A stretch of DNA of 64,000 nt from an uncultured Oscillospiraceae bacterium (lineage in GTDB: Bacteria; Bacillota; Clostridia; Christensenellales; CAG-138), in the NCBI GenBank assembly GCA_964447605.1, contig CAYUTA010000006.1, positions 6,118-70,117 of the forward strand, in the 5' to 3' direction. A program made the translations under genes and the position numbers. The notes under the pieces are model-generated. The model did no database searches, was not told the origin of the DNA, and worked only from the letters and a program-made list of their open reading frames with translations. Below, piece by piece: positions 27,430 to 43,443 of the stretch. Each line of letters begins with the position of its first letter. Within the stretch, counting starts at the first letter, position 1.

Positions 27430-28233
27430 TTGTTCCATAACGCAAAAAACGGTAATATACCAATCGGCGATACCGATATGGATTACGTCTCCTTTGGCAG
27501 GGGGAAAAATCCTGATTATGTTTCCGGGTTTGGGGGATGCATGCAAAACGGTTAAGGGCGGCGCAACCATTTTTCAATGGCGTACAAAATATTTGCAAAA
27601 GACTATCATATATATATTTTTAGCCGGAAGAACAAATTCAATCTGGGGGATTCTGCAAAAGATATGGCTAAAGACCCGGTTGCGGCCATGCGGGCGCTCG
27701 GGATTGGCAAAGCTTCGGTTATGGGCGTATCCCAAGGCGGAATGATTGCCCAACACATTGCGATTGATTACCCGGAGCTGGTAGAAAAACTTGTTTGGGC
27801 CGTAACCGTGTCCAGGCAAAACGATGCCGTGCAGAATGTTGTCGGTCGTTGGATAGAAATGGCGGAACCAAACGACTACAAAGGTATATTCACAGACACG
27901 GCTGAAAAATCCTATTCTGAGAAATATCTCAGGAAATATCGGCCATTGTACCCGATTCTGAGCAGAATGGGCAGGCCAAAGGAATGGGATAGATTTATCA
28001 TACAGGCAAACGCCTGCATTTGTCGCGATGCCTATGGCGCGCTTGAAACGGTGCGATGCCCAACATTAGTAATAGGCGGAGACAGCGATAAGGTTGTGGG
28101 CCAAAGCGCTTCCGACAGAAATGGCCGATCGAATAACGGGCAGCGAATTGATACTATACAAAGGTCTCGGCCATGCAGCATATGCAGAGGCAAAGGATTT
28201 TAACCGCCGGGTTTTAAACTTCTTGGATTCGTG
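27430..28233 (+). pseudogene. alpha/beta hydrolase, disrupted by at least three frameshifts
   Basis: The reading frame must be switched three times to follow the protein. Segment 1: TTG 27430 (GGAGGGG RBS), LFHNAKNGNIPIGDTDMDYVSFGRGKN. Segment 2, after a shift near 27505: LIMFPGLGDACKTVKGGATIFQW. Segment 3, after a shift near 27575: MAYKIFAKDY..GVSQGGMIAQ..PTLVIGGDSDKVVGQSAS. Segment 4, after a shift near 28112: EMADRITGSELILYKGLGHAAYAEAKDFNRRVLNFLDS, ending at stop 28231-28233. Confidence 0.7.
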
Positions 28234-28533
28234 AGGATCGTCATTAAGCGGCAGGCGTAGCGAATAAGCGACCGCACCGTGGCGAGGCGGCAGAACCAGC
28301 CGCACCTGTAAGCGCTGAAAGGACCCACGCCGTCGTTGACAAGCGCGTATGCCCCGCTTATCACCGCTTTTTCTTAATCGATACCATGCATCGTCATGGA
28401 ATCTCCGGCCAAAAAAGCTTTGATTCATGCTGTTTTCCGCAACATCTGTAACGCTTGAGAGCGCATCAGCATCTTTTGATTGTTGGATGAATAAAAAATC
28501 CTGGTGCCAGTTGCATCTTAGGCATTATGATTC

Positions 28534-28953
28534 TTATTTTTCAAATACAGCTTTCTGAATTCTTCGGATCAGCTTGGGTTGGATCAGCGGGTAGGTCCAT
28601 TCCGCCGGCAGCGCATCAAACAGACGGACCGTTTCGATCTCCGATTCCGGCAGCCGGCCAAAGGCAAGGATATCCGCATAATACAGCTTGCCGAACGTTT
28701 CCGCCCTGTCCGAACCGGCAACCCCATACACGCAGACCGGCCGCAGCACATATTGACTTGCGCCCGTTTCCTCAAACAACTCCCGTCTGGCGGTTGCGTC
28801 GATTTCCTCACCGTTCTCCCTGCGGCCTCCCGGCACCTCAAACGTGTTTCGTTCCCTGTGCTTACAAAACACCCATTGTCCTTTGTGTTTTGCTGCGATC
28901 ACGGCAAATTTCAGCAGGGCATCGTCCACAGCATCATAGAAATTCACGTCCAT
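28534..28953 (-). CDS. NUDIX hydrolase
   Basis: ORF trimmed to MDVNFYDAVDD (ATG 28953, AAGGAG RBS). Nudix box: GGRRENGEEIDATARRELFEETG. Confidence 0.85.
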   Translation of the reverse strand: MDVNFYDAVDDALLKFAVIAAKHKGQWVFCKHRERNTFEVPGGRRENGEEIDATARRELFEETGASQYVLRPVCVYGVAGSDRAETFGKLYYADILAFGRLPESEIETVRLFDALPAEWTYPLIQPKLIRRIQKAVFEK

Positions 28954-29036
28954 TTTGTCGCTCCTTTTCTTCATCGCGCCCCCCCCGCGGGGAGCGGCCA
29001 AAGCAAACGAGAACCCCGGCATTCTCCTCCGAAATT

Positions 29037-29585
29037 TCAATCCACACTCCCCCGCGCCGCAGTTTTCGCCTGTTTTGCCACGAACAGCAGCACAAACGGC
29101 GTGAGATTCCGTTCCGCCAGGAACGCGTCCATGGGCACTGCCGTGCCGCTGGGTACGCCCGCGTTGAAAAACCGCAGCCCTGCCCCGCCCTCCGCCCGCA
29201 AAAACGCCGCGTAATGCCAGCCGAGGACGTGCCGGTAGACGAGAATGCCGCTGCTGGCCGTACCCGCCGCCAGAATTGCGCGTTTTTTACCCGCGTACAC
29301 ACGGGTGGCGTGGCCGCGCCGTTTCAGGTACCGCCGTACGCGCAGGGGGCTGGTGCCCAGCGCACCCCGAAACAGGGAGCGCCGGGATAAAGCGGCAATA
29401 ATCTGCTCATGTGGAACCGGATCGCCCAGGCAGCGGAGCAGATTGAACACGGCAATCCAGCCGCAGCCGTTTTTGCTCGACAGGCGGCAGCCGTAGCGCA
29501 CGTCCGTGACGCGCGCCTGGTCGACGATGTATCCCTCCGGCGAATATGCGGCCCGTATGCCTGTTTTGCTTTGGTTTTGCTCCAT
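29037..29585 (-). CDS. hypothetical protein (possible papain-like Cys/His fold)
   Basis: 182 aa. NGCGWIAVFNLL and GWHYAAF are reminiscent of C39-like/BtrH-like cysteine peptidase cores. The fold suggestion is weak. Coding status is supported by tight packing in the operon. Confidence 0.45.
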   Translation of the reverse strand: MEQNQSKTGIRAAYSPEGYIVDQARVTDVRYGCRLSSKNGCGWIAVFNLLRCLGDPVPHEQIIAALSRRSLFRGALGTSPLRVRRYLKRRGHATRVYAGKKRAILAAGTASSGILVYRHVLGWHYAAFLRAEGGAGLRFFNAGVPSGTAVPMDAFLAERNLTPFVLLFVAKQAKTAARGSVD

Positions 29586-29606
29586 GCGTTTTCCCGCTTA
29601 TCCATA

Positions 29607-31520
29607 TTAATCCGGTTGCGCGTCCGCAACGGCCGCATCGGAGCCGGGGAATACGGCCTTATACACGGCGATCCCGTCTAACACAACGTCCACCTGTTCA
29701 AGCCGGGCGCCATGGCGGTTTTTTAGCAGATACCGCTCCATCGCCGCATACTCCGCAGAATCCGCGCGCGTGATGAAAAATACAGCTTCCTCTCTGAATA
29801 CGTCCGCATATCCCGTCGACAGTCCGTTTGCGGCAAGCTGCTTTCGCGCCGTGGCCGAATGCATTTCACACCCGCCCCACGAAATCAGGTTGACCGGCTT
29901 TTCCATCGGATACGTTGTGGTTGCGTCCACGTCCGTCACCACATAGGTATCACGGAAATACACGTTCTGCGGATGCGCAAGCGCGTAGGCGGTCACCGCG
30001 CGGCTTTCCGCCAGCAGATACTTGGGGCTGTTGACGCGCAATTCACGCGCCTGCAGCACGCCTGCTGTAAGTGCCAACACCGCCGCGGCCGCCGCAAAAA
30101 CGACAAAACCCGCACGATCGCGCCGTGGCGCGCGGGGCGCATACAGGCGCATGGCAAGCAGCGCCGCCAACACGCACGCGGGAATCGCTACCACGCGGAA
30201 CGTTCTCTCCAAAAAACGTCCGCCAAGCCCCAGCAGCAGGCACAGCAGCGCGCTGCCGAGCAGCACGCACAGCAGCGCCGCCGTCTCCGGCCAGCGCCGC
30301 CTGTCCCGCCACCATGCGCAGAGCGCAACTGTACCCGCGCACAGCAAAAAAAACGTCGTCATCCTGAGCGGCAGCGCGCCGTCGATGACCGCAAGGCAAT
30401 CCGCCGCCGCGCGCGCAAGCGTCGCGCCGTGCGCGGACGTGCTTTCCGCAATGGCCTTCAGCGACGCGGTGTTGATGCGCGCGTCCATAAAGCACCAGCG
30501 GTCGGCCAGTCCGTATAATGTCTCGTCCCAGCCAACTCCCTCGTAGAGCGCGGGGTTTTCGGAATAACTGTCGCGCGGATAGTCGGTAAACCGTTCTCGG
30601 TATCGGAAAAATTCCCAGTACTCCATGCCGTGATGGGCTTCCTGCAGAGCGTTGTTCAGCGCAAACGCCGCCAGACACGCGCCAAGCGTGGCAAGAAACA
30701 GGAGGCAGGCGCGCGCCGCGCCGCGCCGCCAGACCGTTTCATTTTGCATCGTATCCGGCGCCGCTTTGGGACGCTCCAACCGCAACAGAGCGCCCGTTCT
30801 CGAGCCTGCTTTCTTTCCGGCTTGCACCTCCGCGCCCGGGCCTTGCGTTTCCGGCGCGTTTTCTTGCGCCGCGCCTTTGCGCACGGCCAGCAGCGCCCGG
30901 TATCCACACGCGGCAAACAGAAAGCTCAGCAGAGCGAACCCGGTTTCCTCCCGGTATAAAAATGCGCCTACCACAAAGCTGCAGCCCAGCGCATCCAGCA
31001 CGGTGCGCTTGGTTCTACCCGTTTCCTCCGCCGCGCAGAGTATGAGCGCGCACCCGGCCGATCCAAGAACCGCGGCCGTTACGGTATAAGTCAGTTCCAC
31101 AACCGGCTGCAGCAGCAGCAACACCGTCAGCGCGGCGAAGACAGCCAGCGAAAGCCACAGCGGAACCGCACGGCGCCAGCCCATGCACAGCATGCACGCG
31201 CCGATCACCACCGTGGAAAGGGCAATGGCCGCGAGCTGCAGCGCCGCCCACCACGGCACGCCGGGCGCCGCCGTATACAGCGCGCTGACAGGGAAGCCCA
31301 ACAGGCAGTTGATAAACAGCGCATACGGCGAAGGTTCGCCCGTGTGGTAGCCCGCCAGCGTATAGGCGATCGCGTTGTCGTCATTGGTCAGGTAGGAAAC
31401 GGTCTGCACCGCCGAACACGCGCACAGCAGTACGGCCGCCACGGCCGCAGCAAGCACGGCGCGCCCCCAGGCGTTTCCATACATGCGCGCAATCGGGCCC
31501 GGCTTTTTTTGCGCTTCCAT
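29607..31520 (-). CDS. large polytopic membrane protein, putative GT-C-type glycosyltransferase (paralog 3 of 3)
   Basis: The ATG at 31520 shares its A with the upstream TGA. About 12 TM segments are followed by a soluble C-terminal domain. Shared family motifs: YLTNDDNAIAYTLAGYHTGEPS, PGVPWW and EKPVNLISWGGCEMHS. Confidence 0.7.
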   Translation of the reverse strand: MEAQKKPGPIARMYGNAWGRAVLAAAVAAVLLCACSAVQTVSYLTNDDNAIAYTLAGYHTGEPSPYALFINCLLGFPVSALYTAAPGVPWWAALQLAAIALSTVVIGACMLCMGWRRAVPLWLSLAVFAALTVLLLLQPVVELTYTVTAAVLGSAGCALILCAAEETGRTKRTVLDALGCSFVVGAFLYREETGFALLSFLFAACGYRALLAVRKGAAQENAPETQGPGAEVQAGKKAGSRTGALLRLERPKAAPDTMQNETVWRRGAARACLLFLATLGACLAAFALNNALQEAHHGMEYWEFFRYRERFTDYPRDSYSENPALYEGVGWDETLYGLADRWCFMDARINTASLKAIAESTSAHGATLARAAADCLAVIDGALPLRMTTFFLLCAGTVALCAWWRDRRRWPETAALLCVLLGSALLCLLLGLGGRFLERTFRVVAIPACVLAALLAMRLYAPRAPRRDRAGFVVFAAAAAVLALTAGVLQARELRVNSPKYLLAESRAVTAYALAHPQNVYFRDTYVVTDVDATTTYPMEKPVNLISWGGCEMHSATARKQLAANGLSTGYADVFREEAVFFITRADSAEYAAMERYLLKNRHGARLEQVDVVLDGIAVYKAVFPGSDAAVADAQPD

Positions 31521-33310
31521 CACCGACCGCCCTCCCCGCCGTCAAAGCTGAACCGGTACGCCGCAAGGCCGTCCGCAACCGGCTCGATGCACGTATAGCC
31601 GACCGCCCCTGCGTGCGCCGTAAGGTACGCGTCGAGCATGGCGAGCTTATCGCTGTCCACGGCGGTAATAAAATACACGTTCTCCTGCCGGAACAGCCCC
31701 GCCGAAAGGGAAGCCAGGCCGTTTGCGGCAAGCTGCGCCTCCTTCCAGCCGGAGTGCATGCCCGTGCCTCCCCAGTCGATCAGGTTAACCGGCTTTTCCT
31801 CCGGATAAACCGTAAACGCGCCGATATTCTCAAGGCTTGTCACGTCGGTAAGATAGATATTGTCCGGATGTTCCATGGCGTATGTTTCCGCGGCGGCGTT
31901 TTGCTCCACCAGCGCGGTTCGATCGGTATCAAAGAGTGTCTTCTGCGTCATGCCCAAGCTCCATGCGACCGCCGCGGATGTGAGAAATATCCCCACAAAT
32001 TGTAAGTATCTTGCAATATATTTTCTTTTTTCCCCACCGATTTGTTTATTTTGTGTAAAAGTACGTTTTTCTCCCCACATGCAGAGCAACAGCAACCATT
32101 CCATCACCGTGGTCGGTATGGCGATCAGCATAAACGTGTGCACGGGGAACCGGCCCGCAAAGCAAAGATAAAAGCAAAGCAAAAACGCGCCCGCCGCCAC
32201 CGCGCAGGCGATGGGCAGCTCCGCGCTCTTACCCCTGCGGCGTATGCAAAGCGCAAGGAGCCACAGCGTAAGCAGCACCGGTACCGCCAGCATGTACTGC
32301 GAAACGCCGCTGCCACGGAAAAACGCCTCGCCATAGGCCAGCGCGCCCGCAAGCCGGCGCAGCATGCCCGCGTCCTCCGCATATGGATACGCCGCGATTG
32401 CGTTCATGGTTTCGGCATTGACGGCCGTGTCGAGATAGCACAGGTTGTCCGCAAGATCGTAGATCGTTTTATCCCAGCCGAGCGAAGCAAAAAAGGCCGG
32501 GTCCTCCTCGTAGGTCACATGCGGATAATCGATGAAATGCCCGCGCGCGGCCTCGAACTCCGCATAATATGGCGGGTTATACCGCGCCACCCCCCAGTTG
32601 TTGAGGCACACGGCAAGCGCTGCCGCCGCCACCCCCGCCGCCAGGGCGCACGCAACGCGCACGCGCATACGGACGGGCGCTTTGATGAGCTGGTACAGCG
32701 CCGCAGCCGCCGCAAAGCAGAGCATGCTGTACCCGGAGGAGTTGCGCGTAAAGAAGCAAAGCAGAAGCAACGCCACGGCGCCCGCCGCCGAGGCGCGCCG
32801 CTGCAACCGGGCGTCTCTCTCCCAGTCGATGGCGACGATGAGCGCGCAGGCAGCCGTGCCCAGCATGCCGGCAGTCAGCGTAAACGCAATCCACGCCACC
32901 GGATAAACGAACACCGTCATGTATAGAAGCGCAATCAGCCCCAGCGCCGCCCACAGCGGCAACAACGCGCGGTCGGCCAGCTTGAGCGCGCATGCGCCGA
33001 TGACCGTCAGCGCGGCAAACAGCATGGTAAGCTGACAGACCGTCCACCACGGTATGGAAGGCGCCGCGCGGTACAGGCCGCTGATCAGTAGGCCCAGCGC
33101 CACGTTGATAAAGCGATGCGTGGGATACGGCGCGCCGCTGCGGTAGCCGGCCAGCGCGTACAGGATGTTCGCGTCGTCGTTATTAAGGAACGTAACCTTG
33201 AAAAGCGCGAACGTCAGCGCCATGCAGACGCCCGCCAGCGCGGCGCTTATCAGCCACCTGCCGCCGTGCCGATTGTACGCTCTGTTCAGACTGTCCGCAA
33301 ATCTTTGCAT
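31520..33310 (-). CDS. large polytopic membrane protein, putative GT-C-type glycosyltransferase (paralog 2 of 3)
   Basis: 596 aa. Motifs: TFLNNDDANILYALAGYRSGAPY, PSIPWW and EKPVNLIDWGGTGMHS. Confidence 0.7.
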   Translation of the reverse strand: MQRFADSLNRAYNRHGGRWLISAALAGVCMALTFALFKVTFLNNDDANILYALAGYRSGAPYPTHRFINVALGLLISGLYRAAPSIPWWTVCQLTMLFAALTVIGACALKLADRALLPLWAALGLIALLYMTVFVYPVAWIAFTLTAGMLGTAACALIVAIDWERDARLQRRASAAGAVALLLLCFFTRNSSGYSMLCFAAAAALYQLIKAPVRMRVRVACALAAGVAAAALAVCLNNWGVARYNPPYYAEFEAARGHFIDYPHVTYEEDPAFFASLGWDKTIYDLADNLCYLDTAVNAETMNAIAAYPYAEDAGMLRRLAGALAYGEAFFRGSGVSQYMLAVPVLLTLWLLALCIRRRGKSAELPIACAVAAGAFLLCFYLCFAGRFPVHTFMLIAIPTTVMEWLLLLCMWGEKRTFTQNKQIGGEKRKYIARYLQFVGIFLTSAAVAWSLGMTQKTLFDTDRTALVEQNAAAETYAMEHPDNIYLTDVTSLENIGAFTVYPEEKPVNLIDWGGTGMHSGWKEAQLAANGLASLSAGLFRQENVYFITAVDSDKLAMLDAYLTAHAGAVGYTCIEPVADGLAAYRFSFDGGEGGR

Positions 33311-33408
33311 GCTCCCTCTTTCTCTTTCCCCGCGCCGCCCGGCCGTCCGCGCCCCGGACCGCTCCGTTGAAACAATCCTTCCTGATTAAACCCCGGCGTG
33401 CGTTGCCG

Positions 33409-35262
33409 CTATCGCAAAAATCTGACGACGGCCGCCCCGCCCGGCAGCCTGTCCACAATCTCATACCCCGCCGCGTCCCAGGCAGTTTGCAGGTACGTAT
33501 CCAGCATCTGCAGATAGCGGTCGCCCGGGTCGCAGACATAGTATACGCCGTCGTCAAAAAACACGTCCGCGTATGGGCCTTCCGCGTACCCGTTGGCGCG
33601 CCACTGCGCAGCCCTCGCGCGCGTATACATGTCGCACCCGCCCCAGTCGATCAGATTTATGGGCTTGTCGTCCGGGTAAACCGTCAGTGCGTCATAGTTG
33701 TTGCCCACATATACGTCGCGGATGAAGATATGTTCCGGGTGCCCGCGCGCATAGTCTACGATTCCGCGCGCCTTTTCCAGCGCCCCGGCGGAATCATAGC
33801 TGACCACCGTTCGGAAGATCTTGTACCCGCAAAACAGCGAAACTGCCGCAAGCGCGCCGCAGACGCAGCGCAGCGTGACCGCGCGCGCACCAAGGCCCCG
33901 CTTCCCGTCTGTTCCGGCAGGCTCCGCAGCGCGTCCGCCGCCATATGCGCATACGGCAAGCAGCAACAACGCGAGCATGGCGGGAAATGCAATGGTCATC
34001 AGCGTGCGCAGGTTGATCCTCCCCTGCCAGAGCAGAAAACCCGTCAGCGCCGCCGCGCCCAGCAGCATGCAGCAGCCGCCCGCAAGCGACAGCCAGTGCG
34101 AACGGCGGAGAACCGACACAGCTATAAGCCCGGCGGCCGCGCACAGCGTGATCACGCACAGGTACACCGCAATCGGATATTTCCCAAGGAATACCGCAAA
34201 CGTCTCCGCGCCGCGCCGCACGCGTTCCGCTGCGGAAATGGCGTTGACGTGCGACCGCGCGCTTGCGGCGGACAGCGTTTCGGCATTGACGCGCGCGTCC
34301 ATATAGAACCATGCGTCCACAAGGCCGTACAGCGCGTCGTCCCAACCCAGCGATTCGTACAGTTCCGGATTCTCGTAGTACGTGTCGTGCGGATAGTCCA
34401 TAAACGCCGCGCGCGCATTTTCAAACTCGATAAATCCGGCCGGATTCTGGTTCGCGCGTCCCCAGCCGTTGACGCTCGCAAGCACGAGCACGGCCAACAG
34501 GGCGCACGCCGCGGTTACAGGTATGCTCCGGGCGGAAGGATGGCGCGCGGATCTCTGCGTCTCCGCCGGCATTTCGGATTTTGCGGCGGAGCGCAGCGGC
34601 TTTTCGGCTATATGGGCCTCCATCAGACGGATGGCAAGCGCGCCGAAATAAAAGCACGCGGCGCACAGTCCGGAGGATTGCCGGATGAGCAGGCTCAAAG
34701 CAAGCAGGGCCACGCCCGCGATCCGATAGAACCGCCGCCGCGCAGGCGGGTCGCTTTGCTGCAAAGCAAGGGCAAGCGCAACCGCTCCCATGCCCAGCAG
34801 GGTGGACGAGAGGGTAAACATCACCTGAGAAACCGCATAATAGCACGCGGCGCTGCAAATAAGCGCAAGCAGAACGAGCGGCATAAACAGCGGCGCCCCG
34901 TTTTGATGGCACAGCTTAAACGTACAGGCGGCCATCACCGCAACGCCGAGCAGCATGCAGGCCGTCTGCACGGCGTACCACCACGGCACAGCGGGGAGCA
35001 GCGCGTACAGACCGCTGACCACCGCGGCGGTCATGGGGTTGATAAACGGGTGTGAAAAAGAGGGCGCGCCGCTTCGATACCCGGCCAGCGCCCAGGCGAT
35101 GTTCAGGTCGTCATTGTCATAAAACGTAATAACAGGCTGTAAGGTTGCCGCCAGCAGATACAGCGCGGCCGCAACGGCCGCGCCCAGCAGCCACCGGCCC
35201 GCTTCGCCTGCGTAAATTCGGTTCAACCATGCGTTTGCCCGTTTCATCCTCACGCCCCTCAT
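33409..35262 (-). CDS. large polytopic membrane protein, putative GT-C-type glycosyltransferase (paralog 1 of 3)
   Basis: ORF 33409..35505 trimmed to MRGVRMKRANAW (ATG 35262, ATGA overlap with the flippase stop; an alternative ATG is at 35247). Motifs: TFYDNDDLNIAWALAGYRSGAPS, PAVPWW and DKPINLIDWGGCDMYT. Confidence 0.7.
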   Translation of the reverse strand: MRGVRMKRANAWLNRIYAGEAGRWLLGAAVAAALYLLAATLQPVITFYDNDDLNIAWALAGYRSGAPSFSHPFINPMTAAVVSGLYALLPAVPWWYAVQTACMLLGVAVMAACTFKLCHQNGAPLFMPLVLLALICSAACYYAVSQVMFTLSSTLLGMGAVALALALQQSDPPARRRFYRIAGVALLALSLLIRQSSGLCAACFYFGALAIRLMEAHIAEKPLRSAAKSEMPAETQRSARHPSARSIPVTAACALLAVLVLASVNGWGRANQNPAGFIEFENARAAFMDYPHDTYYENPELYESLGWDDALYGLVDAWFYMDARVNAETLSAASARSHVNAISAAERVRRGAETFAVFLGKYPIAVYLCVITLCAAAGLIAVSVLRRSHWLSLAGGCCMLLGAAALTGFLLWQGRINLRTLMTIAFPAMLALLLLAVCAYGGGRAAEPAGTDGKRGLGARAVTLRCVCGALAAVSLFCGYKIFRTVVSYDSAGALEKARGIVDYARGHPEHIFIRDVYVGNNYDALTVYPDDKPINLIDWGGCDMYTRARAAQWRANGYAEGPYADVFFDDGVYYVCDPGDRYLQMLDTYLQTAWDAAGYEIVDRLPGGAAVVRFLR

Positions 35263-35612
35263 GATGGAAGCGAGAACAGCGCGATGCCCGCAAGGATCGC
35301 GCCAAGCCCCAGCAGCTTGCGTTTGCCCGGGCGTTCGCCCATGAAGGCATACGCCAGAACGACGACAAACACGTGCGCGGCGGAATTCCAGATGGGCGCC
35401 CACGTCAGCGGCACCACGCGCAGCGCAACGACGTTTGTCAGCGTGGAGGCAAAAAAGATGGCGTACGCGCCGACGACCAGCGGGTTGAGATACTGCCGGT
35501 ACCATTTTTCATACGGCTTGAGCGCGGCCTTTTTGAGCATGATCTGCGAAAGCGACGAGATCAGCACACCAACCAGAATGAGCGCCAGGTTCCAGTAAAC
35601 GTTATTCCCCAT
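35259..35612 (-). CDS. small 4-TM EamA/SMR-like membrane protein (ArnE/ArnF-like flippase subunit)
   Basis: 117 aa with four hydrophobic helices. It overlaps its partner gene by 11 nt and the downstream GT-C gene by ATGA. Confidence 0.7.
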   Translation of the reverse strand: MGNNVYWNLALILVGVLISSLSQIMLKKAALKPYEKWYRQYLNPLVVGAYAIFFASTLTNVVALRVVPLTWAPIWNSAAHVFVVVLAYAFMGERPGKRKLLGLGAILAGIALFSLPS

Positions 35613-35976
35613 CGCCCGTCACCACCAGATAGATGCCAAACGCGATCACCACAACACCCGCGATCATGTTCCACGTCACCGCCTCCCGAAAGATCGCCAC
35701 GCCGAAAAGCATGCTCCAGAGCATACTCATGGCGCGGTTTGCGTAAGCCGTTGTCAGAGGCACGCGCTTTAAAAACTGCTGCCAGACCAGCGCGTATGCA
35801 CCGATGATACACAGCGCGCCAAAATACAGCCCAATCCACGGCCAGGACAGCATCGCATGCTGCGCGGCAAGCTTCATGAGCACCGAACTGGCTGAGAACA
35901 GCAGCACGCTGAGCTGTAAGGCCGCGATCAGCTTCCAGTCGGTTCGTTTTTTAGCCGTGCTGCGTTCCTGCTCCAC
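35602..35976 (-). CDS. small 4-TM EamA/SMR-like membrane protein (ArnE/ArnF-like flippase subunit)
   Basis: 124 aa with a GTG start at 35976, 9 nt after the GT2 stop. It has the same architecture as 35259..35612. Confidence 0.65.
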   Translation of the reverse strand: MEQERSTAKKRTDWKLIAALQLSVLLFSASSVLMKLAAQHAMLSWPWIGLYFGALCIIGAYALVWQQFLKRVPLTTAYANRAMSMLWSMLFGVAIFREAVTWNMIAGVVVIAFGIYLVVTGDGE

Positions 35977-35984
35977 GCGCGCCG

Positions 35985-36959
35985 TTACGCCTCCCCGCCG
36001 CTTTTTTCCTGGAAATCCGGCAAGCGCCCCATATATACGCTGCGGACGACATATTGCGGCGATTTATTGATGCTGATGTAGATGCGGCCGACGTACTCGC
36101 CCACCAGCCCGAGCATGAGCATGAGCATGCCGCCGACAAACAGCACCACCGCCATCGTGGAAGAGTAGCCCGCGAGGATGTTTTCCGGGTTTATGACTTT
36201 GCGCAGCACCGTGACAAAGCCCCAGACAAACCCGGCAACCGCAGTAAAAAAACCCACCAGCGTGGCGATGCGCAGCGGCTTGACCGAAAACGCCGTAAAC
36301 CCGTTCATCCACAGCGCGATCAGCTTTTTAAACGTATACGTCGTGCTGCCGGCGATGCGCGCGCGCTCCTCCATCTCCACGTTGACAATGCGGCTGGTCG
36401 TACGCAGCAACAGGCCGGTTAAATAGGGGTACGGGTTGGTGTAGTGCAAAATCTCGTCCACCACGTAGCGCCGGATGGCGATAAAATTGGAAAACTGCAG
36501 CTCGCGCGGCTTCTCGAGCATGATCTCGGTCATGCGGGCGTTGATGCGGCTGCCAAAGTTTTTAAACCAGCTCTGCTTCTTCTCCGGATATTGGGCAATG
36601 GCCACGTCGCATCCGTCCGCAATGGGCCTGAGCAGGTCCATGATGCGGTCCATCGGGCACTGGCCGTCGTCGTCGAGAACGACCATCACGTCGCCGCCGG
36701 ACCGGGAAAGGCCCGCCATGACCGCGGGGATGCGCGTCATGTTCTTGGCCAGATCGACCGCGCATACGGCCGGATACCTGTCGCACAGGTCCATCAGCAC
36801 GCCCCACACGCCGTCCGGCGAGCAGTCGTTGACGCAGATGATCTCATAGTCCGCAATGCCGTTTTTGTCCATCTCGGCCACAATTTCATCGACCACGGCG
36901 GTCACGGTCTTTTCACTGCCATAGCAGGGAATGACAAAGCTCAGTTTATAGTTGTTCAT
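35985..36959 (-). CDS. GT2 polyprenyl-phosphate glycosyltransferase (GtrB/ArnC/CsbB-like)
   Basis: Motifs: FVIPCYGSEKT, NDCSPDG and VVLDDDGQ (DxD). Two C-terminal TM helices are typical of lipid-carrier-charging GT2 enzymes. The start forms an ATGA overlap with the WbqC gene stop. Confidence 0.85.
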   Translation of the reverse strand: MNNYKLSFVIPCYGSEKTVTAVVDEIVAEMDKNGIADYEIICVNDCSPDGVWGVLMDLCDRYPAVCAVDLAKNMTRIPAVMAGLSRSGGDVMVVLDDDGQCPMDRIMDLLRPIADGCDVAIAQYPEKKQSWFKNFGSRINARMTEIMLEKPRELQFSNFIAIRRYVVDEILHYTNPYPYLTGLLLRTTSRIVNVEMEERARIAGSTTYTFKKLIALWMNGFTAFSVKPLRIATLVGFFTAVAGFVWGFVTVLRKVINPENILAGYSSTMAVVLFVGGMLMLMLGLVGEYVGRIYISINKSPQYVVRSVYMGRLPDFQEKSGGEA

Positions 36960-37651
36960 GCCTGTCTCCAGTTCCAGATATAGTATGGCGCCTCGTCGCC
37001 GGTATTGAACAGCAGGTCAAGCACCGATACGCCGTGCTCAAACGCGCCGTTATGCCGCTGCGGATAGGCCGGGTATCCGCCGTAATCCTTCCAGACAAGC
37101 TCGATACCGGCCCGCTCATAATCCCCAGCCTGAATATAATCCCTGGCCGCGGGGCCGCTGACGTACCGCGTCGCGCCCGCCGCTTGCAGCATGGAGAGCA
37201 GCTTTTCGTGCTTTGCGCCGTGGGTTGCAAAGTCGCGGCTGTCGGCAAATTTTGTGGAGATGCCGAGGTAATCCAGGCTGATGCGCTCGATGAGATACCG
37301 GTTCAGCTCAAAAAGATAGTCCCACCTGCGCGCAAGGTACACATGCTCGAGAAATGCCCGGTATTTTTCAAAGTACGGCGCGCGGCGGTAGCTTGCCAGG
37401 AGCATATCGTAATGCTTCTTCTGCCAGGACCTGTCCGTCATGCGCACGTCCAGAATCAGCCGGTGCTCGTCGGTCCCCACCGGGATGGTCAGCCATTTTA
37501 CGCCGCCCTCGGTCACGATGCGGTTGCGGTTGCGCCAGTCGTTTTTGGTGTACTGCAAATCGTCGTGGAAAATGAACAGCTCCACGTCGTGAATGATATC
37601 AAAATACCCCTTCCACGGGATATAGTTGCTCTGCAGCACCGCGACGTTCAT
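36956..37651 (-). CDS. WbqC-family protein
   Basis: MNVAVLQSNYIPWKGYFDII..DDLQYTKNDWRNRNRI..WLTIPV..W..KH..APYF matches the WbqC-like family pattern as I recall it. Confidence 0.8.
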   Translation of the reverse strand: MNVAVLQSNYIPWKGYFDIIHDVELFIFHDDLQYTKNDWRNRNRIVTEGGVKWLTIPVGTDEHRLILDVRMTDRSWQKKHYDMLLASYRRAPYFEKYRAFLEHVYLARRWDYLFELNRYLIERISLDYLGISTKFADSRDFATHGAKHEKLLSMLQAAGATRYVSGPAARDYIQAGDYERAGIELVWKDYGGYPAYPQRHNGAFEHGVSVLDLLFNTGDEAPYYIWNWRQA

Positions 37652-37708: not shown

Positions 37709-39283
37709 ATGATAAGGCGGATGTTTGCAATTTTGCGTTTCCATGCTATCATAATCGTTATGGAACGCGCTGCAAACTACCGAAAAATTGAGATCGATAC
37801 ACGGCATGTCGACGTGCTCGACGGAATCCGCGCGCTGTCGATCGGGTTGATTTTCTGGTTCCACCTCTGGCAGCAGAGTTGGCTGATGCCTTACTGGCAT
37901 ACGCCGCAGTGGCTCATATCGCTTGGGTTGCCAAGCGTCGTCAGCTTCGATTTTTTGCCCCGCAGCGGCTTTTTGTTTGTGGATATGATGCTGCTGATTT
38001 CCGCGTTCTGCCTGTTTCTTCCGCATGCCCGCGCCCTTTTTTGCGGCGAACCCGTACCCGCCGCAAAGCAGTTTTACAAAAAACGACTTGTCCGCATCGT
38101 GCCGCCGTATTACCTGAGCGTATTGCTGATCTTCTCTCTTGTCGCGCTGCCGTCCGGCGCGTATGCAAGCGGCCGGGAAATGCGCGTCGATTTGCTGTCC
38201 ACGCTCACTTTTACACAGACCTTTGTACCGGGCGTTCTGCTTTCCACCAAGCTCAACGGCGTGCTTTGGACGGCTGCCATTGAGATGCAATTCTATCTGC
38301 TGTTCCCGCTGCTGGCAAGCTGCTTCCGCAAGCAGCCAGCGATCACCTATGTCGGTATGGTCGCCGTCTCGATGGCGTATCTGCACCTGTTTGCGCTTGG
38401 CGACCCGGACAAGCTGCGCGTGACGCTCAACCAGCTCCCAGGTTTTTTCGGCGTTTTTGCCAACGGCATGCTCGCTGCATACGGGTTCGTCTGGCTTTCC
38501 ACGCGAACGGGCCGCAAAAAATGGATCGCCGCGCTGTCCACGGCGGTTGCCCTTTTTTGCCTGTATTGGATTTCATGCATGCAGAAGGTCGCGCCCGCCG
38601 TCAGCCCCGTGCAGATCTGGCAGGCTTCCAACCGCTATACGCTGTCTCTTGCGTTTGCGCTGCTGGTCTTTTCCTCCGCGCTTGCGGCGCGGTGGTTCCG
38701 TTTTTTACTGAGCAACCGCGTGATGGCGTTTTTTGCCGCCATATCCTATAACGTATACATCTGGCATCAATGGCTGGCCGTTCAGCTCAAGCAGTGGCGC
38801 ATCCCCTATTGGGCGGGCGAACAGGCGCCCAACTTCACCGGCGACAAGGCCTGGCAATGGACGTACACGCTCGTTGTCATCGGCGCGACGCTTCTCACGG
38901 CCACGCTTTTAACCCATCTGTTTGAGCGCCCGGTTGCCCGCCGCCTGCTCGCGCTCAGGCGGCCTGCTCTCTTTGATAAGCGGACGGTACAAGAAGCTTC
39001 CGCTGCGATGGAAGAAAGGAACTCCGGCATGCACCACGAATTCATCCCCGAGGGCGTTTGCTCGAAAAAAATCACGTTCGACCTGACCGATGACGGCAAG
39101 CTTTCCAACGTTGCGTTTATCGGCGGCTGCGACGGTAATCTCAAAACCATCGGCAAGTTGGTTGAGGGCAAAGACGCCGAACAGATTGCGGCCATGCTCA
39201 AAGGCACCTCCTGCGACGGCGGCGACACCTCCTGCGCCGACCAGTTTGCGCGGGCGATTGAGGAGGCCGCCTCGCAAAAATAG
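37709..39283 (+). CDS. AT3-family membrane acyltransferase with in-frame C-terminal TIGR03905/TSCPD-like 4-Cys module
   Basis: AT3 N-terminal motif RHVDVLDGIRALSIGLIFWFH, followed by about 10 TM segments. The last 84 codons form a separate soluble module. The start may instead be ATG 37760 (MERAANYRK). Confidence 0.75.
   Translation: MIRRMFAILRFHAIIIVMERAANYRKIEIDTRHVDVLDGIRALSIGLIFWFHLWQQSWLMPYWHTPQWLISLGLPSVVSFDFLPRSGFLFVDMMLLISAFCLFLPHARALFCGEPVPAAKQFYKKRLVRIVPPYYLSVLLIFSLVALPSGAYASGREMRVDLLSTLTFTQTFVPGVLLSTKLNGVLWTAAIEMQFYLLFPLLASCFRKQPAITYVGMVAVSMAYLHLFALGDPDKLRVTLNQLPGFFGVFANGMLAAYGFVWLSTRTGRKKWIAALSTAVALFCLYWISCMQKVAPAVSPVQIWQASNRYTLSLAFALLVFSSALAARWFRFLLSNRVMAFFAAISYNVYIWHQWLAVQLKQWRIPYWAGEQAPNFTGDKAWQWTYTLVVIGATLLTATLLTHLFERPVARRLLALRRPALFDKRTVQEASAAMEERNSGMHHEFIPEGVCSKKITFDLTDDGKLSNVAFIGGCDGNLKTIGKLVEGKDAEQIAAMLKGTSCDGGDTSCADQFARAIEEAASQK
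39029..39283 (+). other. TIGR03905/TSCPD-like module (possible independent internal start)
   Basis: MHHEFIPEGVCSKKITFDLTDDGKLSNVAFIGGCDGNLKTIGKLVEGKDAEQIAAMLKGTSCDGGDTSCADQ. This module normally occurs as a stand-alone protein of about 80 aa. An AAAGGAA sequence lies 8 nt upstream of its ATG. Confidence 0.5.
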
Positions 39284-39555
39284 CGGCGGACGGCCCAACG
39301 CTCAATGTCCTTTGCAATTCATACCCCATCACGGCCTTACGGCGGATGCGCGGGACTGCGTTGGAAAATAACGTTTTTGATTTTTATACATTTGGTCATT
39401 TGTTTGAAAACGGCATGCGCCGCCTTTCCATTTTTTGTTTGCTTCCAAATCTGTTTTTCGTTTCCAAAGTTGTTTCAATTCCGTAAACACGAACGTTCGT
39501 TTGCTAATTTTTGTGTCGATTCATGTTAGGTTTGAGCGCAAGGAGGTGTTGCTTC

Positions 39556-40437
39556 ATGCGACCAAGCTGGAAACGAACAACGATTCTGCTCGTCTGCCTC
39601 TGCGCGGTGCTCCTGTTGCCCGCGCTCGCGTCGGCGGCCGGACAGAGCGGCACGATCACGGGCAACAAGGTCAATCTTCGGACCGGTCCGGGCACGCAGT
39701 ACAGCCGCATCGCCTATCTATATAAAGGCGATCCGGTTGCCGTTACGGGCGGCAAGAACGGCTGGTATGCCGTCAGCAGCAACGGCGCGGAGGGCTATGT
39801 CCATTCCGACTACGTACAGGTGCGCGCGGCGGGCGGCTCCGGCAGCACGGCGGGTTCGCCGGACAGCAGCGTGATGAAGCGCGGCAGCACGGGCGGCAAT
39901 GTCAGGCAGCTGCAGGGCAACCTGATTATGCTCGGCTATCTCAACAGCCGCGCAGACGGCTTCTTTGGCGGCGGAACCGAAGCGGCCGTAAAAAAATATC
40001 AGTCCCGCAACGGCCTGTCTGCCGACGGCGTCGCCGGCAAAGCGACCGTCAGCGCCGTGGGCGGCGAGGTGCTGCGCATCCTCAATACCGTGAATGCAGC
40101 AAAGAAACACCTTGGTCTTGCCTATGCTTACGGCGGCTCCAGCCCCTCGACCGGATTCGACTGCTCCGGTTTGACGCAGTATGCGTTTGCCAAAGCCGGC
40201 ATGTCCATCCCGCGGGTCAGCTATGAGCAGGCGGCGGCGGGCATCTCCGTGCCGCGTTCGCAGCTACGCACAGGCGACCTGGTGGCGTTCAACAGCCCGG
40301 TCTCTCACGTGGGTATCTATGTCGGCAACGGCAAGTTCATCCACTCGCCGAAGCCCGGCGACGTGGTCAAGCTGACCAATTTATCCGCCATGAACCTCAC
40401 GGCCATCCGCCGGTTTACCGGAAAGCTGGCGTCATAA
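39556..40437 (+). CDS. secreted cell-wall hydrolase: SH3-like + peptidoglycan-binding + NlpC/P60 (C40) domains
   Basis: ATG 39556 with an AAGGAGG RBS. Signal peptide LLVCLCAVLLLPALASAAG. Domain blocks: SH3b-like (VNLRTGPGTQY), PG_binding_1 (VRQLQGNLIMLGY..DGFFG) and the NlpC/P60 core (GFDCSGLTQYAF..HVGIYVGNGKFIHSP). Confidence 0.88.
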   Translation: MRPSWKRTTILLVCLCAVLLLPALASAAGQSGTITGNKVNLRTGPGTQYSRIAYLYKGDPVAVTGGKNGWYAVSSNGAEGYVHSDYVQVRAAGGSGSTAGSPDSSVMKRGSTGGNVRQLQGNLIMLGYLNSRADGFFGGGTEAAVKKYQSRNGLSADGVAGKATVSAVGGEVLRILNTVNAAKKHLGLAYAYGGSSPSTGFDCSGLTQYAFAKAGMSIPRVSYEQAAAGISVPRSQLRTGDLVAFNSPVSHVGIYVGNGKFIHSPKPGDVVKLTNLSAMNLTAIRRFTGKLAS

Positions 40438-40831
40438 GCCGGCGGCAGGCCGCAACAAACGTTGTTTTTGGCGGGCATGCTGCTCGCTCGCCCTCGCGCC
40501 CATGCGCTCCCGGGCGGCGAACCGCCAAAGGTGTGGGCGGCGGACGCGCCAGCCGCCGCTGCCCACGATTGATATTTTTTTCCGAAATATAAGAGCGTAT
40601 TTCATTGAAGCTGCTTTGGTAATCCTGGCCGGACTGCGCCGCCCTGCGTGCATACCGCCGGTTCCGGCAGGCTCCCCCCATATCTTCGCCCGACCGCGTC
40701 TTCGGGGAACGCGTAAATCCACCGCAGCCTGTGAAGAAACCGCTCCCCTGCCGCATTGGTATATTTTTGCAAAGAACCATTTCCATAATAAGAAAATTCT
40801 GAAAACAATCCGCAAAGGCGGTCAGCTTTGC

Positions 40832-40860
40832 TTGTCAGCGCATATATATTTTGGTATCAT
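40832..40860 (+). promoter_or_regulatory. candidate promoter of ftsW-murA-ftsQ
   Basis: TTGTCA (40832-40837), 17-nt spacer, TGgTATCAT (-10 hexamer at 40855-40860), 55 nt upstream of the ftsW-like ATG. Confidence 0.45.
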
Positions 40861-40914
40861 ACAAGCTGCCTGAAATGGGGGGCTTGACTTTAACGGCTAA
40901 GAAACGGAGCGTCA

Positions 40915-42042
40915 ATGGCGGGTCGCGCACGGATGAAAAACAAAATAATGCGCGGTCATCTGGACTGGCCGATCCTCGTAGCGATTGCCCTGCTGTGCGC
41001 ATTCGGTCTGGTTATGGTGTTTTCCGCCAGCTATTATTATGCGCAGAACACCGCGTCGGTAGGAAACGACGGTTACTATTATATCCGCAAGCAGGCCGTG
41101 TACCTGATCATCGGCTTCCCGATGATGATCCTGATCTCGCTGATGAACTACAAAAAGCTGGAGCAGTTCAAGGTTGTCGCCATACTCGTGTCCATTGCGC
41201 TGCTGGTCGCGGTGCTGATTTTTGGGCAGGAGACCAACGGCGCAAAGCGCTGGATCGTGATTGGCGGTCAAAGCGTCCAGCCGTCCGAGATCGCAAAATT
41301 CGGCATGATGCTTTACATGTGCTCGTTTATGAGCAAGAAGCATGCCGTTATGCGCAGCTTTTCCAAGGGCATGCTGCCGATGCTTCTGGTCATCGGCGTG
41401 ATTTGCGGCCTGGTCATGCTCCAGCCCAACATGTCCATGGCCGTTATCATGGGCCTGATGGGCTATGCGTTGCTGTTCGTCGGCGGCTGCGACACCAAGC
41501 AGATGCTGTTGCTGGCCGTTGCGCTGGTGGCCATGTTCGGTTTGCTTGCCGTGATCGAGCCTTACCGCATGGCGCGTTTGACTTCGTTTACCAACCCGTG
41601 GGCGGATCCGCTTGGCGACGGATACCAGCTCATCCAGTCCTACTATGCGCTCGGGGCAGGCGGCCTGTTCGGCGTGGGACTCAACAACAGCAAGCAAAAG
41701 CTGCTGTACATGACCTACGGCGAGTCGGACTTTATCTTTGCCATCGTATGCGAGGAGCTGGGCCTCGTCGGCGGTCTTGCCGTAATCGCGGCCTACGGTT
41801 TCATCATCTACCGCGGCGTCCGCATTGCGCTGCGCTGCCGCGACCGCTTTGGCAGCCTGCTTGCCGCGGGCATCACGGTTGTTTTCGGCGTGCAGGTGTT
41901 TGTTAACATCGGCGTTTGCACGGGCCTGTTGCCTACGACCGGCCAGGCGCTTCCGTTCATCAGCGCAGGCGGATCGTCCATGATGATCTTCCTTGCCGCC
42001 ATGGGCGTGCTGCTGAGCATATCGCGCACGACCAACACCTGA
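40915..42042 (+). CDS. ftsW: SEDS-family protein (FtsW/RodA/SpoVE)
   Basis: 375 aa with 10 TM segments. Blocks: QPSEIAKF, GYQLIQSYYALGAGGLFGVGLG-like and LPFISAGGSSM. The symbol is tentative; rodA or spoVE is possible. Confidence 0.85.
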   Translation: MAGRARMKNKIMRGHLDWPILVAIALLCAFGLVMVFSASYYYAQNTASVGNDGYYYIRKQAVYLIIGFPMMILISLMNYKKLEQFKVVAILVSIALLVAVLIFGQETNGAKRWIVIGGQSVQPSEIAKFGMMLYMCSFMSKKHAVMRSFSKGMLPMLLVIGVICGLVMLQPNMSMAVIMGLMGYALLFVGGCDTKQMLLLAVALVAMFGLLAVIEPYRMARLTSFTNPWADPLGDGYQLIQSYYALGAGGLFGVGLNNSKQKLLYMTYGESDFIFAIVCEELGLVGGLAVIAAYGFIIYRGVRIALRCRDRFGSLLAAGITVVFGVQVFVNIGVCTGLLPTTGQALPFISAGGSSMMIFLAAMGVLLSISRTTNT

Positions 42043-42173
42043 AGCCGCGTTTTTGCGGTGTGTGCGCGCCCATAATTCCGCCTCAGGGGGCGCTTTGGCG
42101 CAATGCGCCGAAATTTGCCGGAACATTCCGATGCGGGGACGCATACAATGCTATGTGCGTTGGAGGTGTTCTG

Positions 42174-43433
42174 TTGGCAAAGCTCATTGTTACGGGCGGA
42201 GTCCCGCTATCCGGCAGTTGCCGTGTTAGCGGGGCAAAAAATGCCGTACTGCCAATTCTGGCCGCATGCGTATTGACCAGGCGGCCGGTGCGGCTCAACG
42301 ATTGCCCGCAGTTGACGGACGTCGACAACATGGCGGACATTTTACGTACGTTGGGGTGCAGGGTGGAGCGCTGCGGTACATCGCTCCAGGTAGACGCGCG
42401 CGATGCTTCCAGCTATGAGCTGCCGGAGCATTTAAGCAAGGAGCTGCGCTCGTCGATTTTTCTGCTTGGCCCGGTGCTCAGCCGGTTCGGGCACGCGGTG
42501 GTCACCTATCCCGGCGGATGCGAAATCGGCAACCGCCCCATCGACCTGCACCTGCGCGGCTTGCAGCAGCTTGGCGTGCAGATCCGCGAGGAGGGCGGCC
42601 GCATTCACTGCGACGGACGCAGGCTGACCGCAGCGGATATCCATCTGGACTATCCGAGCGTAGGCGCCACGGAAAACATCATGATGGCGGCCGTCGCGGC
42701 GCAGGGCGAGACGATCATCCGCAACGCGGCGCGCGAGCCGGAGATTGTTGACCTGCAGAATTTTTTAAACGCCGCGGGCTTTTATGTGCTCGGTGCAGGC
42801 ACATCGACGGTGGTGGTCCAGGGCGGCTGCGCGCCGCGCGAGGTGGATTATACGGTTATGCCGGACCGCATCGTGGCGGGAACACTGCTGGTCGCGGGCG
42901 CAATTACCGGTGGAAGAATTACGGTGGAAAACGCGGTTGCCGACGATATGGCAGGCATCCTTGCCAAGCTGACGGAGTGTGGTTGCGGGCTGGAGATTCA
43001 TCAAAGGACGATTTCGCTGGCTGCGTCCGAACGTGTGCGTGAGATCAAGCTGGTTGAGACGCTGCCGCATCCGGGTTTTCCAACCGATATGCAGGCGCAG
43101 ATTTTTGCCCTGTGCACCGTATCGGACGGAACCAGCGTGATCGTTGAAAACGTGTTTGAAAACCGCTTCAAACACGCGCAGGAGCTGACGCGCATGGGCG
43201 CGAGCAGCACCGTCAAGGGCCGAACGGCGGTCATCCGCGGCGTGCCGCGGCTTCGTGGCGCGGCCGTAATGGCGCACGACCTGCGCGGCGGGGCGGCCAT
43301 GGTGCTGGCCGGGCTCAACGCAGAGGGAGTGACCACTGTGGAAAACTGCAGGCATATTGACCGCGGTTACGAGCGGCTCGAGCATATGCTCGGCGCGCTG
43401 GGTGCGCGCATTACACGAGAGGAATCGACGTAA
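42174..43433 (+). CDS. murA: UDP-N-acetylglucosamine 1-carboxyvinyltransferase
   Basis: TTG start at 42174, 5 nt after GGAGGTG; the longer ORF 41916.. overlaps ftsW. Motifs: LAKLIVTGGVPLSGSCRVSGAKNAVLPILAA, GGCEIGNRPIDLH and FPTDMQAQ. Confidence 0.9.
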   Translation: MAKLIVTGGVPLSGSCRVSGAKNAVLPILAACVLTRRPVRLNDCPQLTDVDNMADILRTLGCRVERCGTSLQVDARDASSYELPEHLSKELRSSIFLLGPVLSRFGHAVVTYPGGCEIGNRPIDLHLRGLQQLGVQIREEGGRIHCDGRRLTAADIHLDYPSVGATENIMMAAVAAQGETIIRNAAREPEIVDLQNFLNAAGFYVLGAGTSTVVVQGGCAPREVDYTVMPDRIVAGTLLVAGAITGGRITVENAVADDMAGILAKLTECGCGLEIHQRTISLAASERVREIKLVETLPHPGFPTDMQAQIFALCTVSDGTSVIVENVFENRFKHAQELTRMGASSTVKGRTAVIRGVPRLRGAAVMAHDLRGGAAMVLAGLNAEGVTTVENCRHIDRGYERLEHMLGALGARITREEST

Positions 43434-43443
43434 CGGACGAAAT

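Follow-up and report, generated by a model that had tools for sequence, protein, structure and literature searches.

What might a bacterium do with three large, related membrane proteins encoded directly behind a single family-2 glycosyltransferase (GT2) and a pair of small transporter-like proteins? The question is raised by a string of nine minus-strand genes on contig CAYUTA010000006.1 (assembly GCA_964447605.1) of an uncultured Oscillospiraceae bacterium, within a 64,000-nucleotide (nt) stretch that we call the window. From its upstream end, the string encodes a WbqC-family protein, the GT2, two half-size EamA/SMR-like proteins, the large proteins L1, L2 and L3, a small protein with conserved Cys and His residues (the Cys/His protein) and a NUDIX hydrolase; the gene for an AT3 acyltransferase diverges from it. 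An earlier note on this DNA proposed that one donor-making module here feeds three alternative transferases of the GT-C type. How Gram-positive bacteria glycosylate their wall polymers outside the cytoplasm influences their phage receptors, their recognition by the immune system and their tolerance of antibiotics, and the GT-C transferases known from them come from a small number of named families, YfhO and PMT_2 among them. We favor the reading, with a probability of roughly 0.7, that the operon charges a membrane lipid with a sugar, flips the sugar outward across the membrane and uses the L proteins to attach it to the cell envelope, with accessory roles for other members of the cluster.

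An unnamed membrane-protein family with a GT-C-like predicted fold

L1, L2 and L3 are paralogs, mutually 32–37% identical (37% for L1 versus L2), and have in common an NDD motif that closely follows the first transmembrane helix (TM1). None belongs to a Pfam or NCBIfam family, with Pfam searched to an E value of 10. The sole family to appear was TgpA_N, below its cut-off of 30 bits (27.1 bits for L1, 22.5 bits for L3); we rejected membership and take these scores as similarity between hydrophobic segments. No profile relation was found to the named GT-C families (PMT, PMT_2, YfhO, STT3, Arabinose_trans, DUF6044 and others), and searches of the PDB with L2 by phmmer and with an L-family profile returned chance matches only, no GT-C chain among them. 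A word-indexed search recovered 16 close relatives only, the sole source-named one being a hypothetical protein. By contrast in scale, an exhaustive profile search of 1.84 billion representatives, clustered at 50% identity, yielded 4,572 clusters with E ≤ 1e-3 and 682 with E ≤ 1e-30. We found no description of this family in the searchable literature.

L2 was modeled with AlphaFold2 from 15 sequences. The model is confident, with a predicted local distance difference test score (pLDDT) of 84.4 and a predicted template-modeling score (pTM) of 0.86. When the model was compared with the PDB by Foldseek, the top eight matches were all GT-C enzymes, with probabilities of 0.75–1.0, followed by unrelated transporters with probabilities below 0.15. 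ArnT was matched with probability 1.0 (5f15, E 1.8e-4; 5ezm, E 2.8e-4; TM-score 0.38/0.41), and the other top matches include the archaeal oligosaccharyltransferase AglB (3waj, 3wak), AftA (8if8), Pmt1/Pmt2 (6p25) and EmbC (7bve). The same reference structures have been used to recognize GT-C enzymes elsewhere (PMC8035078; PMC11127046). The likeness of the large proteins to GT-C families, as the earlier note had suspected it, is therefore supported by structural comparison of the L2 model, and the outcome that the note had named as refuting its proposal, large proteins with no GT-C-like fold, did not arise; hidden Markov model and sequence searches gave no match.

The L2 model contains about 11 transmembrane helices. 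A 50-residue loop after TM1 carries the NDD motif at its start (residues 44–46) and two short helices, a conserved 90-residue loop follows TM7, and the protein ends in a 115-residue α/β domain. The N-terminus and the TM8–TM9 loop are rich in Lys and Arg, whereas the loops that follow TM1 and TM7, like the C-terminal domain, are acidic and contain few of these residues; because of this distribution, the N-terminus is predicted to lie inside and the external loops EL1 and EL4, together with the C-terminal domain, outside. NDD, R189, R256, D261, D280, D294, R387 and H481 (L2 numbering) are invariant in 40 of 40 sequences, Coriobacteriales included. These residues fall on loops low in Lys and Arg and high in Asp and Glu, and L1, L2 and L3 all retain the putative active-site residues among them.

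As modeled, L2 thus resembles a GT-C-fold transferase with a (modified) DxD motif in an extracytoplasmic loop, at a structural similarity that is distant (TM-score about 0.4). It also has the features of the GT-C_A class, namely 7–13 transmembrane helices, a catalytic-Asp segment after TM1 and the outer C-terminal domain that such enzymes often possess. We hold with moderate confidence that the fold of the L proteins is GT-C-like, and from predicted fold, topology and the invariant NDD we infer that they are GT-C glycosyltransferases of an unnamed family.

Predicted donor synthesis and flipping

The proposed assignments of the upstream genes, a lipid-carrier GT2 and an ArnE/F-like flippase pair, are both supported by closer comparison. 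The GT2 shows homology along its whole length to polyprenyl-phosphate sugar synthases: phmmer aligns it end to end with the solved ArnC (9hwj) and GtrB (5ekp) structures, both at E 1e-33, and it matches dolichol-phosphate mannose synthase (DPMS) at E 5e-16. Its best NCBIfam match is PgfS (2e-43; 148.5 bits against an equivalog cut-off of 500), and ArnC also scores (7e-40; 136.9 bits against 529). Two hydrophobic C-terminal helices lie at about residues 229–253 and 269–287. Homology places the GT2 in the ArnC/GtrB/DPMS class of predicted polyprenyl-phosphate sugar synthases.

The two EamA proteins exceed the Pfam cut-off of 28.2 bits for PF00892, subunit A with 32 bits and subunit B with 37.5 bits. 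In NCBIfam, subunit A gives weak matches to ArnE (6e-6; 26 bits against a cut-off of 92) and ArnF (5e-4; 20 against 99), and subunit B gives weak SMR (Qac/Ebr) matches. Like ArnE and ArnF, the proteins are half-size and encoded by adjacent, overlapping genes. In all related loci the pair comes directly after the GT2, and the subunits are always together. From family and pairing we infer that they form an ArnE/ArnF-like flippase heterodimer. Two parts of a three-component glycosylation system can accordingly be recognized at the level of predicted function: a membrane-linked GT2 that would charge polyprenyl phosphate, and a small polytopic flippase encoded beside it.

Conservation of the cluster and of the L1–L2 pair

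We scanned with the window proteins 18 related loci from species-representative genomes and four from contigs encoding two close homologs, a set that contains duplicate records of one metagenome-assembled genome. The order GT2-EamA-EamA-L1-L2(-L3)-Cys/His is kept in Oscillospiraceae, Christensenellaceae and unclassified Clostridia, and is seen in at least two chromosomal contexts. In locus L001 the cluster lies in another chromosomal context, beside ribosomal protein genes, and therefore moves as a unit. Because the gene order recurs in at least 15 independent contigs, we take the genes to be real and not chance open reading frames (ORFs). Judged from these comparisons, the conserved core is the GT2, the EamA pair, L1, L2 and the Cys/His protein; WbqC, AT3 and TSCPD, the domain joined to AT3 in the window, are usually present.

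Every complete related locus has both L1 and L2, side by side and in most cases with overlapping genes. A maximum-likelihood tree resolves well-supported clades for L1 (17 rows), L2 (15 rows) and L3 (4 rows), and the L3 clade is confined to the window and loci L001, L002 and L005. In this phylogeny the L1–L2 pair is ancient, and L3 branches deeply as a further paralog and is no recent duplicate. The cluster as found in Christensenellaceae has a short-chain dehydrogenase/reductase (SDR) epimerase/dehydratase gene between TSCPD and WbqC. One locus of this type (L012) has, between its TSCPD and SDR epimerase genes, a 454-residue ORF (2627–3991) that matches nothing in Pfam or NCBIfam.

Accessory proteins of the cluster

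Both domains of the divergent acyltransferase are well supported: AT3 scores 86.3 bits (PF01757, 2.7e-24) against a cut-off of 31, and TSCPD scores 77.8 bits (PF12637, 7.7e-22) against 22.8 and 90.9 bits against 67.7 for TIGR03905. AT3 with a separate TSCPD gene stands upstream in at least 12 related loci; locus L007 has the cluster and no AT3. What is one ORF in the window is two adjacent or overlapping genes in relatives, as on the minus strand of L002 (AT3, 4453–5697; TSCPD, 4230–4478). In at least seven representative clusters, AT3 is instead fused to the N-terminus of an L-family protein. These fusions, of about 940 residues, are P0046, P0064, P0076, P0099, P0112, P0116 and P0129 (locus L026, 8001–10832), and their domain order is that of the AT3-SGNH acyltransferases, with L replacing SGNH. 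The recurrence of AT3-L fusions argues strongly for a substrate common to AT3 and L.

WbqC matches PF08889 over 215 of 218 profile positions (E 2e-71; 240.8 bits against a cut-off of 21.3) and is 60–70% identical across phyla. It is present in 13 of the 14 distinct related loci that reach upstream, and it lies before or facing the GT2 in all loci except L007. In Treponema, Selenomonadaceae and one other lineage, WbqC adjoins DegT aminotransferases, ATP-grasp ligases and SDR enzymes, and the Treponema neighborhood also holds an EamA pair and a GT2. An AlphaFold2 model of WbqC (pLDDT 94) gave weak Foldseek matches to HUP-class proteins (BshC at E 0.02, class I tRNA synthetases and a cytidylyltransferase), which offer only a hint of a nucleotide-binding, Rossmann-like HUP-class fold; we judged them too weak to assign a function. 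No functional study of the family was found in the searchable literature. In Treponema primitia (L023, 8001–12126), the WbqC gene is followed by genes for two small EamA/ArnE-like proteins, an ArnC-like GT2 and two DUF6044 (PF19510) membrane proteins, the last two in the position held by the L genes in the window; DUF6044 may be another unrecognized family of terminal transferases for the same cassette.

The Cys/His protein has no transmembrane segment. Four residues, Q23, C41 (in NGCGWI), H124 and N141, are invariant in 13 sequences and stand in papain-like order. Neither Pfam, scanned singly with 13 members, nor phmmer and profile searches of the PDB gave a match, and every source-named sequence in 637 related clusters is a ‘hypothetical protein’. 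Its gene closes the cluster in every locus whose downstream end reaches that far, and its presence is more constant than that of WbqC, which makes the Cys/His protein a core member.

The NUDIX hydrolase (PF00293, with TIGR02705 below its cut-off) is absent from all related clusters. We therefore rejected it as a member of the system, and it is probably a bystander. Among the accessory genes from which the earlier note had proposed a modified, possibly acylated sugar, AT3 stands as a conserved neighbor recurrently fused to L and WbqC as a nearly constant companion, and NUDIX drops out.

Wider context of the L family

More distant L-family members were sampled in eight contexts, two near-identical Coriobacteriales loci being counted as one. 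In four of the eight, the L gene lies within a few kilobases of a GT2 (L026, L028 and L030) or of an EamA pair (L031, where an unannotated gene for a 308-residue protein precedes the pair). DegT aminotransferases are nearby in five contexts, as are ATP-grasp ligases; AT3 occurs in two, once as a fusion and once as a neighbor, and WbqC in one. One locus contains TagF-like, TagD-like and TagGH-like genes. The Coriobacteriales pair (L021/L022) is an orphan context. Because of these neighbors, the wider family points to wall glycopolymers as its acceptors and to an amino sugar, often tailored, as its usual cargo. In the window itself, the DegT, SDR epimerase and ATP-grasp proteins of related loci had no tblastn match. 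In L032 (96–4431) and L030 (6688–9797), L genes have ATP-grasp genes as direct flanks and overlap them, a tie tighter there than that to the GT2.

Layout of the locus

ORF listing and translation found all nine minus-strand ORFs, from 37651 down to 28534 as stated in the earlier note, and the divergent AT3 gene; Pfam confirmed WbqC, GT2 and NUDIX and placed the two small membrane proteins in EamA (Table 1). From WbqC to NUDIX, the junctions measure -4, +8, -11, -4, +98, -4, +21 and -4 nt, so that the WbqC stop and the GT2 start overlap by 4 nt and the two EamA genes by 11 nt. The last of these junctions hinges on a TTG start for NUDIX. An alternative ATG at 28953 comes with an AAGGAG ribosome-binding site of its own; it would leave an 83-nt gap and is likely to be the true start. 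Upstream of WbqC, a sigma-70-like sequence (37730–37702, minus strand) agrees with the consensus at 10 of 12 positions and is a match to consensus only.

Table 1 Coordinates of the cluster and its divergent neighbor in the window (aa, amino acids; TM, transmembrane helices)
Feature	Position	Strand	Remarks
WbqC-family protein, 231 aa	36956-37651	-	PF08889; cytoplasmic
GT2, 324 aa	35985-36959	-	PF00535; two C-terminal TM
EamA/SMR-like subunit A, half-size, 124 aa, about 4 TM	35602-35976	-	PF00892
EamA/SMR-like subunit B, half-size, 117 aa	35259-35612	-	PF00892
L1, 617 aa from ATG at 35262	33409-35262	-	Paralog 1 of the unnamed GT-C-like family
L2, 596 aa	31520-33310	-	Paralog 2; protein chosen for modeling
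L3, 638 aa	29607-31523	-	Paralog 3, of the window's sublineage
Cys/His protein, 182 aa	29037-29585	-	Cytoplasmic; papain-like Q/C/H/N pattern
NUDIX hydrolase, YtkD-like	28534-29040	-	PF00293; downstream neighbor
AT3 acyltransferase with C-terminal TSCPD (TIGR03905), one ORF	37709-39283	+	Divergent from the string

Upstream of AT3, the window encodes an NlpC/P60 hydrolase with SH3 and peptidoglycan-binding domains, FtsW/RodA, a MurA-like enzyme and FtsQ/DivIB (39511–45381); this cell-wall and division neighborhood is not kept beside the cluster in L001 or L002. At the other end, NUDIX and an α/β-hydrolase ORF (27577–28203; PF00561) stand between the cluster and pfkA in this genome only (region 27430–29040 of the window), and in L002 pfkA comes directly after the Cys/His gene.

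Discussion

In the pathway that we favor, the GT2 would move a sugar from a nucleotide sugar to polyprenyl phosphate at the cytoplasmic face of the membrane, as its homology suggests, and the EamA pair would flip the lipid-linked sugar outward. The L proteins would then pass the sugar from the lipid carrier to an extracytoplasmic acceptor, a step for which their predicted fold, motif, topology and gene linkage argue. The acceptor is most likely a cell-wall glycopolymer, either teichoic-acid-like or a secondary wall polysaccharide; Ser/Thr-rich surface proteins are less likely. AT3(-TSCPD) probably O-acylates the added sugar or its acceptor, as linkage and fusions indicate, and WbqC and the Cys/His protein would act on the donor in the cytoplasm. 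Given its neighbors elsewhere, the WbqC step may involve an amino sugar, and the Cys/His step may be amide or thioester chemistry. L1 and L2 would constitute the ancient, always-paired core of the system, with L3 as an extra paralog in this locus and NUDIX presumably a bystander.

Such a system would work like the Gtr, Arn and CsbB/GtcA/YfhO systems. By sequence it is a member of none, because its proteins score too low to be equivalogs of ArnC, ArnE, ArnF or PgfS and the L proteins have no PMT, PMT_2 or YfhO domain. The closest functional parallels may be the Gram-positive three-component systems, which include CsbB/GtcA/YfhO, GtlA/GtcA/GtlB and CsdAB/CD/EF with CflA of L. lactis (PMC8035078). 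In these, as proposed here, a C55-P-sugar is made by a membrane-linked GT-A/GT2 enzyme and exported by a small flippase; a polytopic GT-C protein, which bears a DxD-like motif in an outer loop, then adds the sugar to a wall polymer (PMC8035078). Sharing of one donor or flippase among several GT-C enzymes also has precedents, in Listeria GttA and in the single L. lactis flippase CflA (PMC8035078). By contrast, the flippases of those systems are of the GtrA type, whereas the predicted flippase here is a heterodimer of the EamA/SMR type (ArnE/F-like); the L family lacks a YfhO or PMT_2 domain and has no Pfam model; and the conserved WbqC, Cys/His and AT3-TSCPD proteins of the present cluster have no counterpart there.

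The Arn pathway offers a second comparison, with a GT2 related to ArnC along its full length, a pair of four-helix proteins resembling ArnE and ArnF, ArnT as the best structural match of L2, and cytoplasmic accessory enzymes that may tailor the donor, as ArnA and ArnD do. Nevertheless, the GT2 scores far below the ArnC cut-off, the L proteins carry no ArnT/PMT signature, two or three transferases replace one, and lipid A is not to be expected in the host, a member of the Clostridia. The locus does not contain the gene set of the Arn pathway, that is, equivalogs of ArnC, ArnE, ArnF and ArnT with ArnA, ArnB and ArnD. No ArnB-type (DegT) aminotransferase or SDR enzyme was found in the window by tblastn, and no ArnA-formyltransferase or ArnD family appeared among the Pfam-scanned window ORFs, with no search aimed at either.

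The Pgf system of S. mutans (PgfS, PgfM1, PgfE and PgfM2) likewise combines one ArnC/GtrB-type GT2 and two GT-C membrane proteins in one operon, and the SDR epimerase that accompanies the Christensenellaceae version of our cluster extends the likeness. However, PgfM1 and PgfM2 belong to the YfhO family and the L proteins do not, the pgf operon lists no flippase gene whereas the cluster in the window has a dedicated pair, and no adhesin genes are linked to the latter. The GT2 is not a PgfS equivalog by score, and none of L1–L3 is a YfhO-domain GT-C protein. Two further parallels concern the terminal enzymes. GT136 of Citrobacter youngae is a GT-C family that was recognized from an AlphaFold model, which matched ArnT, AglB, Emb and AftA, and from a catalytic Asp that follows TM1, and its system uses an EmrE/ArnE-like flippase (PMC11127046). 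Its donor synthase depends on phosphoribosyl pyrophosphate, in contrast to the GT2 found here, and its sequence is unrelated to the L family. In the mycobacterial arabinan pathway, one lipid donor feeds several GT-C enzymes (Emb and Aft), as we propose for the L proteins.

Several observations weigh against the pathway as we have drawn it. No sequence-level tie connects the L proteins with any GT-C family in Pfam, NCBIfam or the PDB, every source name seen for a family member is ‘hypothetical protein’, and the structural similarity of L2 to GT-C enzymes is distant, with TM-scores of 0.38–0.41 and a high root-mean-square deviation. By tblastn, the window holds no nucleotide-sugar synthesis gene besides WbqC, and no acceptor gene is linked to the cluster. 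A search for transcripts that could speak to co-transcription found no RNA run, the stretch turning up solely in gut-metagenome DNA runs. Finally, a complete 2.85-Mb genome (L029) has the same flanks as the window, with aldose epimerase and PUA methyltransferase genes upstream and phosphofructokinase and thiolase genes downstream, and at the syntenic site AT3 is followed directly by the Cys/His gene (8634–10534); WbqC, GT2, the EamA pair, the L genes and TSCPD are all missing from it. Because this site keeps only these two genes, AT3 and the Cys/His protein may work together and may form a module of their own, with a role other than glycosylation.

How the L proteins divide the work bears on the claim of three alternative transferases. 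The three paralogs in the window do keep the putative active site, but the conserved state is L1 plus L2, with L3 in four loci. Because that state is a pair to which L3 is an add-on, an obligate L1–L2 hetero-oligomer is as plausible as separate acceptors. We consider it possible, if somewhat unlikely, that L1 and L2 (with L3) serve one acceptor as such an oligomer or act sequentially on one glycan within the same pathway. Their ancient paralogy and constant adjacency would fit, as would the Pmt1–Pmt2 and EmbA–EmbB heteromers among the structural matches of L2 and the Pgf system, in which one GT2 serves two GT-C proteins of unequal roles (bioRxiv 10.1101/2024.05.05.592596). Independent enzymes, however, fit equally well with the retention of all putative catalytic residues in three paralogs, and L members that occur as single copies in Coriobacteriales and other loci indicate a fold that needs no partner. 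The acceptor is a separate matter. O-glycosylation in Ser/Thr-rich extracytoplasmic regions of membrane or surface proteins, as by Pgf or GtrB-PgtC2, would agree with PgfS as the best NCBIfam match of the GT2 (2e-43), with an SDR epimerase beside the Christensenellaceae cluster that recalls pgfE, and with two GT-C genes per GT2, which is the pgf layout too. Yet the PgfS score (148 bits against a cut-off of 500) is almost equaled by that of ArnC, the L proteins lack the YfhO domain of PgfM1, PgfM2 and PgtC2, and distant L members lie in teichoic-acid and polysaccharide loci, not beside adhesins, all of which makes a protein acceptor unlikely in our estimation.

Two readings give AT3 a larger part. 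In one, the L proteins would not be glycosyltransferases at all; they would be outer-face partners of AT3, in the place of the SGNH domain of OafA/OatA, or polymerase- or ligase-like enzymes, leaving the GT2 and flippase to serve some other enzyme. The recurrent AT3-L fusions with the AT3-SGNH domain order and the conserved position of AT3 next to the cluster speak for such a role, as do WaaL among the weak structural matches of L2 (probability 0.30) and a weak Wzy_C match in one L member. We nonetheless think it very improbable: the top structural matches, at high probability, are GT-C enzymes that transfer mono- or oligosaccharides, no Ser or Cys nucleophile is conserved among the invariant residues, the GT2-flippase-L order is tight with no other candidate transferase in the cluster, and L007 has the cluster and no AT3. 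In the other reading, an acyl relay would be coupled to glycosylation through the joint action of AT3(-TSCPD), the Cys/His protein and the L proteins. The Cys/His protein would load or edit an acyl or aminoacyl group in the cytoplasm, AT3 would carry it across the membrane, and the outer domains of the L proteins, replacing the SGNH domain of OafA/OatA, would deliver sugar and acyl group to the wall polymer. This relay seems doubtful to us. If true, the L family would found a new CAZy GT-C family and would be the dedicated transferase of a widespread WbqC/DegT/ATP-grasp/GT2 amino-sugar cassette in Firmicutes.

More broadly, in the lipid-linked glycosylation pathway that we favor, the logic of a lipid-linked sugar, a flippase and an outer transferase is already familiar. 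What appears to be new is a predicted ArnE/F-type flippase pair in a Clostridia host, an unnamed family of predicted GT-C-like proteins that in related clusters always occurs as a pair or trio, and three conserved accessory proteins (WbqC, Cys/His and AT3-TSCPD) without counterpart in the systems studied so far. Members of the L family are most likely wall glycosyltransferases in gut and digester Clostridia, including Oscillospiraceae and Christensenellaceae. If their activity is verified, they would probably define a new CAZy glycosyltransferase family, as GT136 did in 2024 (PMC11127046), and would provide a handle on the wall glycopolymers of hard-to-culture gut bacteria.

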